Below are positions 1-12,000 of a stretch of 64,000 nucleotides of DNA, piece by piece. A program made the position numbers. This DNA comes from a virus: the IMG/VR virus record IMGVR_UViG_3300044827_000008, positions 1 through 64,000 of that record; one strand, given 5' to 3'. The stretch's first letter is position 1, and every line of letters starts with the position of its first letter.

Positions 1-3000
1 CAAGCTCCGCAACGCGGGTTAGTGATTCTCGCGCGTAGGCCGGGAATTTGGTCGGGTCCGCGAGGCCCGCCGCAAGGTGAGCGCCCTGCGAATCCCGCTG
101 AGTTGCCGCAAACTGCGCGAGCTTGATGGGTCGCATGACCTCATCTGCCATTGCCAAGGCCCGCTCTGGTGCAATCTGTGACTTCACGCGATTGGGATCG
201 CCCTCCGCAGTTGAACGTGGTGCGTTCGGGTCAATCGTCTGGAGTGAAGTAATGTCGCGGCTGAAGTTATGAATCGTATAGTCGGTCACCACGCCACTAC
301 CTGCATGCAGGCCCTTCGTCAGGCCCGCGTCCATCGCCAGTGCACGGACAAGCTGCTCATGGTCGATACCTGTCGCCTCCAGACTCACCACCGCTCCGAC
401 AACCGAATTGCGGGATTCGGGGTACAACGGATGCGACGGCGGACGACTACCGGGTTCCTGATTCCACTCACTGCTATTCCAGCCCCACTTGACAGCCTGC
501 GCAAGGTCCTGCACGATGCTGTGCACCGCCTGACGCTGGCCGGGCGACATCTTCTCGTATGTCAGCGGCCCCTTCGGCCCCTTCACCTTCGGAGCCTTTG
601 GAGTCTTTGGCGTTACGCCATCCCCTCCCTCACCTCCGACCTTGACCCATTGGTTCCCGCCGAAGCCATGTCCCGCTCGACGCCCGGAGCCGGTTCCACC
701 CTTCGTATCGTCGATGGTAAAATCCTTTTCCCTCGCGGGCGTCTCCAAAGTCAAATCGCCGGGCAGCCACAGGACACGCCACGCGCGCCCAGGCGGGGCC
801 AACGGCAATTCGGAGGGCGCAGACTTCTTCCCAAAGGGTCGCGGATTCGAGCCGAGATAAGTGGCCTTGATGAGGGCAACCTTGTTCTTGACCTCAACGC
901 TCTCGACCCGGAAGTCTGCACCGCGTGGGAGGAGGACCTCTTGAAAGGAATCGTTGGCCGGACTCTTGTACTCGTCGGGCCGCACCGCGAGACATGTCGC
1001 GCCCTTCGGGATAGTGATCTCCCAGATGGTACTCGCGCCGTCAACGGGGGCGGCCTGTTCTGAGACGACGTTGGCATACCCCTTACTCGACGCGTCGACA
1101 GCATCGTCGGGAGTATTGATGGTCGAGACGTAAGCCTCGTCGTGATAGGTGTCTCCGGCCTGCGGGACCTCGGCCATGATCGCGCCCCGGAAGAGGATCT
1201 TGTCATCCTCGAAGCTCGACCCGAAGACCCTGAAGCACTCGTCTAGTTCGTTCGGCCCGTGATTGGTCATCGAGAGATCGTCAGGATTCGTTCCGGCACG
1301 AAGCTCGATGTTCATCAGCCACGCGTCCGCCGTCTCGTAATCGCCCATCGTCTCTTCAAGCTCGTAGAACTTAGTAGCGTGCTCGCCCCATTGATCCGCT
1401 GGAGTATTTGGAGTACGACTGTTCACGTCCTGCTCGGCCATCAGGTACTTGCCCGCGAGGTGCATATAGTCTTCAGCCGTTACGACGTGCGTTCCGGCAT
1501 CAACTAGAAGCTGCTTCAGGACAGCGGCCCGCGTCTCCGGCTTGAGGTTTACGGGGTGCTGCGAGCCCGGCACGACCCAACCCGCGCTGACGAGGCGGAC
1601 CGTGCTGGGCTCCTCACCCCCGCCGCCACCCGCGCTCCATCGCCCGTGATCATCGCGATCCTCACCCGAAACATCATGAGATTCCTTACTAGAATCGACG
1701 AACTTCACGGCATTCGGCTTCAGCGCGATCACCCAATCGGCACCATTTGCCCAACTCACGTTACGAACGATAAAGCCGTCATAGTCCTTCAGCATCGCTT
1801 GTCGCAACTTTTCGGGCGAACCATTCGGATCACGCTGAGAAGTTGCGAGCATCTTGTAGTAGTACCGCTGAATCTTTTCGGATGAACCGACGAGGGGCCG
1901 CTCAAGTCGAATCGCAACCTCAAGCTCTCTCGTCGAACCGTGACCAAGACTTTCGCTACCAGATTTACTTGAGGTATAAAAGCCGGGACCCAATGCACCC
2001 ATGCCCATCTTAGTGACGCCACCCTTCAGTAGACTGCGCGCCCCTTCATCGCTAGTAACGTGATAAGTGATCGCCTTGTTTTTAGAATCAGCCAGCCATG
2101 TCCTGGCCTCAGACATTGAGATGGTTCCACTCCCACCACTGGTCGTCCACTCACCGTGCTCGTCACGGGCCTCGTCAGACACGTCATGCGCTTCCTTCAT
2201 TTCGCCATTTGTTTTTGCGCGGGCGGGAGCGGGTTTCACGGGCGAACTGAATTCCTCGCGCGCGATGTCACGATTGATCCAATCGACATTTATCTGCCCC
2301 GTGTCCTGCTCGACTATTTTGATCATGACGGCACCGGCCCTTCCTGCGCAGTGACATCGTAATCGCCCTTGATGCAGACAACTTCGTTCTCGTGATAGCA
2401 ACCCGGCCCAGTGAATGGCAACGAGAAAATCTTCTCAGCCGGAACCGTCGCCTTCAGCCACCAGGGGCTAGGACTCTTCTCATCACTCGTGACATCGTGA
2501 TACGAGAAGCGCAGAGCAATACGCGCGTCAGCACTCCACGAGGAAAGCGGGTTCGACTCAAACTCGATCTTCGTACGATCCGACGGCGGCTTCTCCATAA
2601 GGGACATGCCACGATCAAGCGCCAGATATTTCACGCCCCATGTCTTCAGCGTGAACTGAGTTTCCCTGTAAACCTCATCCGCATACCGTAGCGCGTCCGC
2701 AACACGCGCGCCGAACTCCTGGCGGTCGCCCTCATCTGTGTAAAGGTTGAGAGCATTGTTCCTGAACGCAACTCCATTTTCTTCATAGTTTTCGAAGGTA
2801 GCTTTGTAGGGCGAGATCACGTCGGGGTCGATCTCCGCAATATCCTTTCCGGCATTTTCCGCCGCACGCGCTACGATGTCGAAGGACTTAAACTCCTCGC
2901 CATTCTGTACGGCTGCTTCGAGAGCCGCGTTGTGAAGCTCCAGTGGCTTCAACATCGCATCCTGCTTGCCGATCGCCACGTAGAACTGATGCGACGCAGA

Positions 3001-9000: not shown

Positions 9001-12000
9001 CCGTGGAACTCGTGACCAGCGACATCACCCTTTTCTCCGAGAAGTGAACCGATGACTTTCTGCGAGGTCGCGACGTAATCAGCAAGCGCCGCGATAACCT
9101 CGCGGTCGAGGTCGCTCATTATGAGTCCCCGGCGATCAGCTTCGCGAGATCGGCTGTCGCAGCCTTCAGCGTCGCAACGAGTTCCTTCGAGGAGGTTTCA
9201 TCTTCAGTCGCCATCTTCGGGACGACCGTAGAAACAATTGGAGCGCCTGCCGCCAACTTGGCCCAACGATGACCATGGGGGTCGTGGCCCTCATCGTGCG
9301 CATGGATCACGCCGTTACGATGCTTATGGTAACGGGCGGCTTGCGACCCACCGATGGTAGCCGCCTTGCCCTCCCATTCGCCAGCATCGAGCGCCTCGAC
9401 ATCGAGCGCGCCTGTCTCGATTAGATCGGAAAGGTTGCCAGTCGGAATGAATGCAAGGGTGCCATTGGGGTGATCACGAACCGGCTCGCCCATGTCGTCA
9501 ATCGCGAGGCCAGTGTCGGGGTCGATCTCGTACACGGTGCCATTGCGGTTAGCGCACTCGGGATCGTCGATGCCATCGAGCGCCTCCGTTTCGGTCGCGC
9601 CGGAGTCGAGGATCGCATTACCCGCGCCCCAGTTGAATGCGAGCATGGACTCGGTTCGCGCGATGCGCTCTGCATCGTACGCGTCCCCCTCGAAGATCGA
9701 GGCGACGCCACCATAGTTCTCGTCCGGCACGCCGTTCGCGATCTGGAGTGGGGAGTACGCGCGTGTCAGACCGGTGTCGATGAGGTCTTGAACATCGTTC
9801 ATCATGCGATCGTCGATCTGTTGTGCGTTCGGAGCAAGCGCCCGATGATATCGGCGCGTCAGGAAGGGCGAGGTAAAATCGGACTTTGTCTCGACGCGAG
9901 CACGCTTCGAGAAACCGAGTACCCGCTTACCTACGTCCCAACCCTCATTGGCCGCCTCAGCGTGAAGCTGGTGCACGGCCTCGTTGATGGGGGCGAAACT
10001 CAAGTTTTTCTTGAGGTACGCGTGACGCAATTCACGATCGGGAATCTTCGACGCCTTGCCGATAACCGCAGTCAACGAGCGTCGAACCTTGCTGGCCGCC
10101 TCACGCAGCACCGGACTATACTTGTAGGTCAGAGAATCGCGCGCGGTGATGCCCTTGCTGATCATGAGCGCCGCCAGGGCGGGCCGATGCGATGGCACTT
10201 GCATCATCTTTGTCTCGTATCGAGCGGCCCGCTTCTCCCCATACTCATTGAGTCGGGCCGACATCGACTTGGCGCGCACATTGCGGACACCAATGCCGCG
10301 CATGCGCATGTTCCGGCGGACTTCCTGCGCCGCCTTCACCTGTCGATCGTAGTCCGCGATGAGCGAATCCCGCTCCTCCTGAGTGAGGTAGGAGAGTGCC
10401 TCTGCCGTAAACGCCTTTTCTGGTGACTTCGGTGGGCGACCATTCGCCTTTGGTCCCGCCGAAATAGGATTGGCAGGCATGTGGCCGGTCGCGTCAACGG
10501 CAGCCTGACGACCCGTCTGGGTCCCCTGTGTGATCGCGGGCTGTCCGGGGATGGGGTTCGACCCGCCCGATCCGCCGGGCTTAGGAGCGCGAGCCGCGAG
10601 AAGCTTGGGATCGTCCGGGGCCATCTGCGCGGGAGGACCACCTCCAGCCGTTCCAGCTTCGGTATCGGCCTTATCCATCTTGTCAAGCTCGACCACGACA
10701 TCGGTCTGCTGGAGAATGACAGAATCTCCGGCCTTACCGGGAAGCTCGGGGACGCCCAAGTACACGCGAATCTCATTCTGCGTGAACGCCTTCAGGTTGC
10801 GCATCATCTGCGCGTTGTTCATCTTGACGGTGTCGTCCTCGAAGTTCTTCCGCTGGTAACGGAAGAGGTAGTCACCCTCGGGATGGAAGACCTCGACCAA
10901 GCCACGTGGGAAGCCGTAATTGAAGTGGTCCTCTGCGCGAGAAAGCCGTGGCTCCATCGTCTCGCTCCAGAAAAACCTGTCCGCCTCGTCGCTCTTGTAC
11001 TGTGCATCTTCGATGATGCCCAGCTTGTTTTTCGGGATGCCGAAGTTCGCGAGCACGAAGTCCCGCTTCGAGAGATCGAGCTTCGAGTAGTCCAGGCCCT
11101 TGAAACCTTCCGCGACCGGAGTGTACTTGAGGCCCTGTTCGAGAATCGCCGTCTTAAAGCGCGCTTGCTTGTCTGCACTGAACTGTCGCCAGCGGTTAAC
11201 GAGCCGATCGAAAGTATCGGTGTCAAGTTGCTGATCAGTTTCGAGGACACCCGTGATGCGACCACCGGACTTCCAGTAGTTCAACTCGTTCTGAGTCATC
11301 GCGATCATTGTGTCCATCGTCTGCTCCATCGCCTCGATGTTGCCAAGTCCGCGCATTTGGTTTAGAGGGTTCGCGACCTTGATGTGGACGACCTCATCCA
11401 CTTCGTATGGGATGAAGCTTGGAAGGTAACGACCATTCTGGTAGCCACTCGTGTCGTACGCGTAGCCGATGATCTCGCCGGACTGCTTGTCTTGCACCAC
11501 GCGCATGCGCGCGGGAGATGGCAAGTAAAGTTCGGCGGGAATACCCTGCGCGTCCTTCGCCTCCAGAGTGATGTAGGACTCGCCCGCAAGCTCGATAAAC
11601 ATTCCCATAAGCTCGCGGAAAACCATCCCGGACTGGAATGGATTCGGACGGTGCCACACCTTTAGGAATGGGTCATGCTCATCCTCGACTACTTCATCGT
11701 TACCGTCGAAGAGGTCGCTGGGCGCGGTCGCAAAACTGTAACCGAGAAGTGACACGCACGCGAAGACCCATGGCACCGTCTTGATTGCTTCGAGATAGGA
11801 CTGCATGTCCTTGAAGCGGGACTCGGCTGACGGTGCGCCCTGAAGAATGCGCCCGTTCTCGCCCGAGAGCGTGAATTGGCCGGACTGAGAGCGATCCGTT
11901 TTCTCCTCGAATGCGGACGACGGGACCCAAACCCCGTTTACGGTCTTGCCCCGAACTGGTGCGGTGAAGTCCACGGCATTACCCGCCGGTCAGGGCGACT

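Follow-up and report, generated by a model that had tools for sequence, protein, structure and literature searches.

How might a virus tolerate several active toxins encoded among its own head genes, with no immunity gene beside them? The question is raised by an effector chain at the start of IMG/VR virus record IMGVR_UViG_3300044827_000008, an 88,347-bp record whose 127-bp terminal repeat indicates a circular assembly and of which bases 1-64000 were analysed (64,000 nucleotides, hereafter the window). The head module lies on the minus strand and comprises a portal-MuF gene, five coupled effector genes, a gene of 101 amino acids (aa), and a 696-aa fusion of Peptidase_S78 and Phage_capsid (Pfam), placing the effector chain among head genes with portal/MuF on its upstream side and the protease-capsid fusion on its downstream side. 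A stop/start overlap is present at every chain junction (in order TAATG, TAATG, an 8-nt overlap, ATGA and ATGA), by which the five effector genes are translationally coupled. The effector domains found in a row are DUF7178, two ADPrib_exo_Tox domains, two DraT-like ADP-ribosyltransferases (ARTs) and a weak ART-PolyVal match, and two kinds of shared sequence tag, A and B, open the chain modules. Gene calls revealed no separate open reading frame (ORF) between the genes of the window chain, and therefore the chain holds no separate immunity gene. What we found after its DraT-like and VIP2-like ARTs are short peptides of an enzyme-specific type, often encoded as the first residues of the next gene, and in other phages and metagenomes such peptides track the upstream enzyme. 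The genes and peptides concerned are the following.

5083..5976, minus strand: 297-aa gene with an N-terminal peptide, tag A (5821-5874) and a VIP2-like ART (about 5155-5679)
5046..5078, minus strand: W-x-x-G-E peptide, residues 5-15 of the 479-aa gene, right after the VIP2-like ART gene
3651..5090, minus strand: 479-aa gene with the W peptide, tag B (4941-5012), a helical subdomain and a DraT-like ART core (about 3735-4163)
3583..3654, minus strand: N-V-D-W peptide, residues 1-24 of the 443-aa gene, right after the first DraT-like ART gene (ATGA overlap)
2323..3654, minus strand: 443-aa gene with the N-V-D-W peptide, tag B (3487-3558), a helical subdomain and a DraT-like ART core (about 2347-2742)
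2249..2326, minus strand: N-V-D-W peptide, residues 1-26 of the 1143-aa gene, right after the second DraT-like ART gene (ATGA overlap); the partner used in the co-fold below
1..2326, minus strand: last gene, 1143 aa, first 775 residues in the window, crossing the record origin; in order tag A (2132-2188), a weak ART-PolyVal-like module, tag A (1622-1678), a VIP2-like ART (about 836-1549), the W peptide and tag B (632-703)
746..778, minus strand: in-frame W-x-x-G-D peptide after the second VIP2-like ART, in the last gene

An initial annotation had claimed that both DraT-like ARTs are followed by a like peptide of about 25 residues encoded at the start of the next gene, and this was borne out at 3583-3654 and 2249-2326. 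A six-frame regular-expression search over the whole genome placed the N-V-D-W motif at exactly these two sites, and in an alignment with 11 peptides from other phages its W is invariant and its N and D are at least 90% conserved. The 479-aa and 443-aa genes that precede the two copies are paralogues with 30% identity; Pfam DRAT (PF07357) scores 16.7 bits on the former, below its cut-off of 25, and has no match on the latter. The second motif proposed, after the VIP2-like ARTs, is likewise present after both of them, at 5046-5078 and 746-778, with the span given for the in-frame copy (746-781) one residue too long. Here the enzymes are recognised above the curated Pfam cut-off of 23.4 bits, ADPrib_exo_Tox (PF03496) scoring 53.7 bits on the 297-aa gene, whose true start is the ATG at 5976, and 27.8 bits on the second VIP2-like ART in the 1143-aa gene. 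The further claim that each peptide lies just before a Lys and a shared tag held for four of the five peptides, but in the 1143-aa gene the tag starts after K-E-A. Assembly errors are an unlikely source of the split ORFs, since ATG starts coincide with the motif and the independent loci, described below, are many.

To place the DraT-type peptide among relatives, a HMMER scan of 1.84 billion representative proteins was run with the 443-aa protein and gave 768 matches at E <= 0.001, of which the best 150 were taken as the set of relatives. This best 150 of 768 includes giant single chains that reach 7059 aa and 11 ART copies. Relatives exceeding the Pfam DRAT cut-off of 25 bits include P0005 (83 bits), P0020 (29.2), P0141 (27.1) and L093 (25.9). 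ART ends were located from 225 domain matches in 148 proteins, of which 221 were kept, matches with a profile end below 125 of 137 being left out; the window's own P0001 and P0006 are also left out of the motif counts in this paragraph and of the corresponding count for the W motif. A recurrent motif was found 15-60 residues past the DraT-like ART, namely h-x-h-D, then 3-8 residues, then N-A-D-W-[IVLP]-K/R. The N-A-D-W motif lies within 130 aa past 49 of 117 internal DraT-like ART ends (65 proteins). A loose 6-residue expression gave 73 matches, 51 of them after an ART, against 12-31 in shuffled sequences, and the composite N-A-D-W motif occurred 0-2 times in shuffled ORF sets. Across 119 tag boundaries the motif stands at 24 of 54 with an ART upstream versus 1 of 65 without (Fisher 2.8e-9, too strong a value, since the rows, among them repeats from a single protein, are not independent). 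A stricter composite motif places 42 of 46 matches within 130 aa after an ART end, the remaining four being three protein N-termini and one position after a truncated ART. No ART lies within 560 aa downstream in 18 of the 42 ART-following composite matches, and the reading that the motif tracks a downstream ART was rejected on this ground. A reading of the motif as part of the tag was also dismissed, as the tag types after it differ.

The same pairing was followed across gene borders in 78 viral loci fetched via the tag and 80 metagenome loci fetched via ART patterns, ART matches with a profile end below 100 of 115 being left out of both counts. In the viral loci L009, L011 (twice), L014 (with near copies L015 and L016) and L082 the motif opens the gene after an ART gene, and a fused ART-motif form is found in L012/L025, L017 and L018. 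In the metagenome loci the motif is downstream of 21 of 74 unique ART ends, in 19 of the 21 cases in the next ORF; seven ART ends with less than 240 nt downstream were left out of this count. Several proteins among the relatives start with the motif (P0086, P0115, P0122, P0138 and P0148). Row counts are inflated by near-identical loci (L014/L015/L016, L069/L072, L009/L087 and L156/L159/L160). That the repeating unit ignores gene borders, as had been suggested from the window, thus finds agreement in the window, in the viral loci and in 19 metagenome rows, with the motif opening the next gene in each. Viral contigs yielded no relatives when the 443-aa protein, P0138 or P0005 served as a single query, and a scan of genome contigs found none; the phage GenBank collection yielded nothing at the DNA level and a single weak match among proteins.

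Two side observations concern the DraT-type peptides. In P0018 and P0146 a recurrent peptide of the type L-I/V-Q/H-T-K-L follows DraT-like ARTs in place of N-A-D-W, and it may be a third type of such module. In addition, many copies carry an E-h-x-I-H-E/D-x-L element between the N-A-D-W core and the tag (alignment A2, columns 40-60), an element that aligns with the M-I-R/K-G-L-K-F-T heads of ART proteins that lack the motif.

The VIP2-type peptide was examined at gene junctions of the viral loci, counting junctions between an upstream ORF of 100 aa or more and a downstream ORF of 120 aa or more that has a tag at most 130 aa from its start, a definition that missed L009, L011 and L082. Among the 74 unique junctions so defined, neither motif occurs at any of the 66 with another upstream domain. 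Where a VIP2-like ART is upstream, the W motif is present in four of five junction rows, or three of four unique ones (L010, L069/L072 and L038), and the upstream genes at these three are ADPrib_exo_Tox (Pfam). The protein P0152 has a clear W motif after one of its two VIP2-like ARTs, P0153 has a variant and P0154 has none. None of the 117 DraT-like ART ends is followed by the W motif, and the background of a loose W motif is 28 occurrences in 727,883 ORF residues. Searching for VIP2-like units gave small yields, with 1 and 3 matches in two word-based protein searches, and a local jackhmmer run missed the VIP2-like ART of L102, which a profile built from alignment A5 detected. As judged from these counts, the motif tracks the upstream enzyme, and neither the downstream domain nor chance, for both ART types. 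The co-occurrence proposed earlier, of N-V-D-W-I peptides with upstream DraT-like ARTs and of W-x-x-G-[ED] peptides with upstream VIP2 ARTs, is therefore upheld in its direction for both types but is not general. As a separate observation, a conserved Zn-ribbon protein follows the VIP2-like ART genes of L050, L070, L077, L061 and L054, and in three of these five loci its first residues include a W-D-N-E-E-L-S-W stretch.

Where on the enzyme could such a peptide act? AlphaFold2 modelled the ART core of the 443-aa protein with a predicted local distance difference test (pLDDT) of 84-98. In VIA-align, R-S-E ARTs made up nine of the ten best rows for this model (Vis, ART2.2, C2-I, Tre1, Certhrax, HopU1 and VIP2), at Z of only 4.5-5.6; structure 6drh (Tre1) was among the structural matches, and Foldseek returned no match for the ART model at E <= 0.001. 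The Arg, Ser and Glu-x-Glu catalytic positions are retained in the DraT-like ARTs (43 sequences), positions that in R-S-E ARTs line the NAD+ cleft according to the available part of a review (PMC8120803). The initial annotation had proposed co-folding an ART with its cognate peptide, and for the DraT-like pair this succeeded, the model laying the peptide over the catalytic Arg, Ser and Glu-x-Glu. For this co-fold the 443-aa protein was taken from residue 60 to 443 (alignment A1, 43 rows) and paired with the first 40 residues of the 1143-aa gene (alignment A4, 13 rows), which gave a score of 0.77 versus 0.18 for the best of three controls. Of 80 solved complexes 58 attain this mark, as do 2 of 110 mismatched pairs, figures that serve only as a rough guide because the alignments were our own. 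Contacts are shared between the runs to at least 59%, with a partner pLDDT of at least 40. The modelled interface involves R348-G349, S371-S372, E422 and E424, plus W130-D136 of the conserved helical subdomain; across 43 relatives R348, G349, E424 and W130 do not vary, and S372 and E422 are at least 90% conserved. The co-fold supports binding of the peptide to the second DraT-like ART as modelled, and a peptide in contact with these three catalytic elements would presumably keep NAD+ out.

The candidate modules are not confined to the ends of enzymes or the beginnings of effectors. Genes coding for the module alone, with the motif followed by a basic tail, stand directly upstream of tag-B DraT-like ART genes at L093:3965-4135 (+) and L086:224-394 (+), each 57 aa long, and a 70-aa gene of this kind occupies the same place at L094:4778-4987 (+), a layout like that of an antitoxin-toxin pair. 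At L102:2666-3019 (+), a small gene after a VIP2-like ART gene encodes a VIP2-type variant (Y for W) and then N-D-D-W, and a DraT-like ART gene lies at 4779-6026, 2 kb past this two-module gene. A 65-aa gene at L022:6690-6884 (+) consists of the N-A-D-W module alone, in a long form, towards the end of its chain and two genes before a head-protease-like gene, and the DraT-like ART of the L022 chain has no such module in the same chain; a search of the ESM Atlas gave no usable match for this 65-aa protein. A RelA/SpoT-like domain suspected by eye in the 255 residues before the L022 gene was rejected for want of Pfam support. Judged by gene layout, the free genes and exceptions mark the module as an independent small unit kept near ARTs and not as a fixed C-terminal piece of the fold.

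Taken together, we give roughly even chances to the reading that these peptides are small partner modules, or plugs, each serving one ART family and predicted to silence a cargo toxin. The DraT plug would be a short strand of the form h-x-h-D followed by N-A-D-W-h-K/R and a short helix, and the VIP2 plug a basic h-h-W-x-x-G-[DE]-h-x-h; a plug can share the ART's own chain, open the next coupled gene with its first 15-40 residues, form a C-terminal tail or stand as a free protein of 57-90 aa. While the toxin is being synthesised and loaded into the procapsid, the plug would occupy the NAD+ cleft that separates the helical subdomain from the beta core and keep the enzyme silent, so taking the place of an immunity gene; a cut at the adjacent tags, or unfolding of the proteins on ejection, might later remove it. 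The view of the initial annotation, that the peptides are cognate inhibitors cut away at head maturation to arm the virion, thus finds support in part: inhibition would be plausible from the association and the modelled contacts, and removal by a protease is a conjecture. The fuller scenario, in which the head cargo toxins are zymogens held by family-specific active-site plugs, a protease or zincin cut at the tags arms the virion after assembly, and plugs replace immunity genes, is one we put forward only tentatively and regard as doubtful in its entirety.

Several results weigh against this reading. About 28-42% of DraT-like ART ends carry the motif and most do not, and with a broader profile 8 of 20 unique VIP2-like ART ends show the motif or a variant and 12 show none. 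The motif also follows regions without an ART recognised by the ART profile in L013 and L139, stands upstream of the ART gene in L093, L086 and L094, and comes after a VIP2-like ART gene in L102. The binding is that of a model; of its three co-fold runs one reached only 0.52, and the fold of the partner itself is uncertain. AlphaFold2 left the N-terminal plug of the 443-aa protein itself below pLDDT 50 and undocked, and on the in-frame VIP2 unit, with a 10-row alignment, it folded the ART core and gave model residues 265-340, among which the W peptide lies, a pLDDT of 25-33. Contact with the active site as modelled would, moreover, fit a regulatory, substrate-like or structural segment equally. 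What the sequence comparisons do establish is the association of motif and enzyme, which is well supported, real and independent of gene borders and covers fewer than half of the ARTs.

Among the alternatives, a structural or tethering piece, which would complete or stabilise the ART fold and, where the next gene encodes it, link successive effectors non-covalently for ordered loading and ejection without inhibiting them, draws on the lowest-error contacts of the co-fold, where peptide residues 2-7 pair as an added edge strand with ART residues 361-368. It would also account for how often a plug opens the next translationally coupled gene, and for fused and split forms being interchangeable. 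However, most ARTs of the family, many solo proteins included, end 5-20 residues past their last strand without a plug, and therefore the ART fold does not need one; genes coding for nothing else than the plug tether nothing, and the modelled contacts extend beyond the strand pair over the catalytic Arg, Ser and Glu-x-Glu. We hold this explanation to be rather unlikely. A loading or processing signal for the scaffold, the portal, the head protease or a zincin-like module, its place beside ARTs arising as cassettes spread with their flanks, would agree with peptides that sit just ahead of shared tags, with a chain placed between portal-MuF and the Peptidase_S78-capsid fusion, and with the portability of an acidic peptide to another protein (see below). 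A generic signal is not expected to come in enzyme-specific types, though, and the absence of either motif from the 66 other junctions and of the VIP2 type from the 117 DraT-like ends runs counter to it, as do the retention of the motif beside ARTs of only 25-40% identity and the margin of the co-fold over its controls, making a signal quite unlikely.

The plug could instead be a pseudo-substrate or auto-modification site, its conserved Lys/Arg after the Trp being ADP-ribosylated by the neighbouring ART, which would amount to regulation and not blockage. Most copies do have a basic residue after the Trp, and the plug is modelled at the catalytic centre, but this residue is neither fixed in position nor invariant, and we consider the idea very improbable. 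If inhibition by the plugs is real, they would form a new and extensive family of peptides that naturally inhibit R-S-E ADP-ribosyltransferases. Phages would then have a new means of holding packaged toxins inactive, and the plugs would offer natural peptide leads for the NAD+ cleft of two ART families. ORF borders would then not be functional units in these loci, and annotation could follow the rule of pairing unannotated N-terminal peptides and mini-genes with the upstream enzyme.

The locus represents a split version of the phage-type polyvalent effector systems, with their polyvalent proteins and their effectors linked to MuF/portal, described by Iyer et al. 2017 (PMC5512222) and Iyer et al. 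2022 (PMC9503650), papers cited here, like those that follow, from the available parts of their text. As in those systems, effector domains of several unrelated kinds are encoded with head genes by portal/MuF. In the published systems ARTs are the most frequent of these domains, the effectors are proposed to be packed into the head and injected, and the chains often include a zincin-like peptidase proposed to process them (PMC5512222, PMC9503650). Unlike them, the present chain consists of five coupled ORFs and not of one polypeptide, and its ARTs are of the R-S-E type (DraT-like and VIP2-like), whereas the H-Y-D type is the typical one in that text. The available text of PMC5512222 and PMC9503650 mentions no enzyme-specific peptides after ARTs, and the supplements might list the module under another name; nor does that text explain how several active toxins are tolerated without immunity genes, which a border-crossing plug would explain. 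In the MuF polymorphic toxins of temperate phages (Jamet et al. 2017, PMC5576092), toxin domains are joined to a head-morphogenesis module and work with protective immunity proteins, in contrast to the chain described here with no separate gene between effectors; the initial annotation states that immunity genes usually lie downstream of MuF toxins.

Inhibition of an ART by an attached or separate partner has precedents. In MTX and pierisin-1 the segment after the catalytic ART domain inhibits it and proteolytic cleavage activates the enzyme; these are single secreted toxins with ricin-B-like domains, cut in the animal gut or the target cell (PMC8120803), whereas the plugs are a family of short conserved motifs within the head cargo of phages, which the following gene or a free gene may encode, with inhibition predicted from models and cleavage conjectural. 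In Tre1-Tri1 the R-S-E ART is neutralised by the product of a separate gene, which blocks its active site (PMC8120803). Tri1 is, however, a full protein of ADP-ribosylhydrolase fold in a secretion system, in contrast to a plug of 15-60 residues that is usually fused to its neighbour and forms part of virion cargo. Plug genes that stand free near ART genes (L093, L086, L094, L102 and L022) resemble the Tre1-Tri1 arrangement, whereas the window plug is the head of the next effector. T4 Alt is cleaved by the T4 head protease, a short peptide being removed at head maturation. That peptide, the capsid targeting sequence of T4 internal proteins, is an N-terminal address label common to different cargos, in contrast to a plug that is enzyme-specific and stands after the enzyme. 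Alt itself is a head-packaged ART delivered with the DNA (PMC5512222). What is known, then, is head-packaged ARTs, polyvalent effectors and the auto-inhibition and immunity of ARTs, and what appears new, as judged from the text consulted and the searches below, is an enzyme-specific, border-independent peptide after the ART that also occurs as mini-genes. Full-text literature searches with the plug motif strings found nothing, the plug modules have no match in Pfam or PHROGs, and P0141 and P0151 have none in PHROGs.

The remaining parts of the chain and its surroundings carry the following features.

9119..11974, minus strand: portal protein with a MuF-like C-terminal part, at the head of the chain (Pfam Phage_portal, 8.2e-50)
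5976..9119, minus strand: 1047-aa gene with an unknown module, DUF7178 (Pfam) and a ParB-like/Zn module, the ParB-like reading being by eye; tag B at 8973-9020 and tag A at 8457-8513 and 7209-7262
7287..7364, minus strand: acidic peptide downstream of the DUF7178 module; a K-D-F element and tag A come next
57017..57100, plus strand: further copy of the acidic peptide, with which a 99-aa early-arm protein (56804-57103) ends at its C-terminus

In the portal protein, residues 688-818 gave weak PHROG head-morphogenesis and minor-head matches besides the PHROG portal matches, and by eye a D-P-H-G-H-R-W stretch near the C-terminal end (9119-9300, minus strand) resembles a degenerate tag A. In the last gene, the ART-PolyVal-like module (1652-2146, minus strand) scores 17.4 bits in Pfam, below its cut-off of 31.2, and would, if real, be a third kind of ART in the chain. 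Near the end of the 1143-aa protein, beyond the record origin, an H-E-x-x-H motif was seen by eye on a part without a Pfam match.

Tag A opens chain modules five times and tag B four times, and in the coding frames of the whole genome the tags occur only in this chain; three further matches to the tag-A expression are out of frame or elsewhere. The W peptide of the last gene is followed by a K-D-F element at 701-727 and then by tag B. Literature searches in full text with the tag strings found nothing. By eye, tag B begins after a Lys with a Gly/Ser-rich run (K-G-G-x-G-S-G), and the protease-capsid fusion (L007:6217-8307, minus strand) has a Lys and a Gly/Ser-rich run resembling this start before its capsid domain; to judge by the shared pattern, the head protease could cut both. 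Together with the H-E-x-x-H module that ends the chain, these resemblances are the hints that a plug may be removed at head maturation.

The acidic peptide, finally, had been described as the companion of a glycosylase-like domain. It is indeed present at 7287-7364 after DUF7178, with the K-D-F element between it and tag A, and P0024, a close relative at 56% identity, retains it behind that domain, but a second copy stands at 57017-57100. The 99-aa protein that carries this copy has a Cys-rich start and a basic middle and is unrelated to the 1047-aa chain gene; therefore the acidic peptide appears to be a portable module and not simply the DUF7178 enzyme's own peptide.

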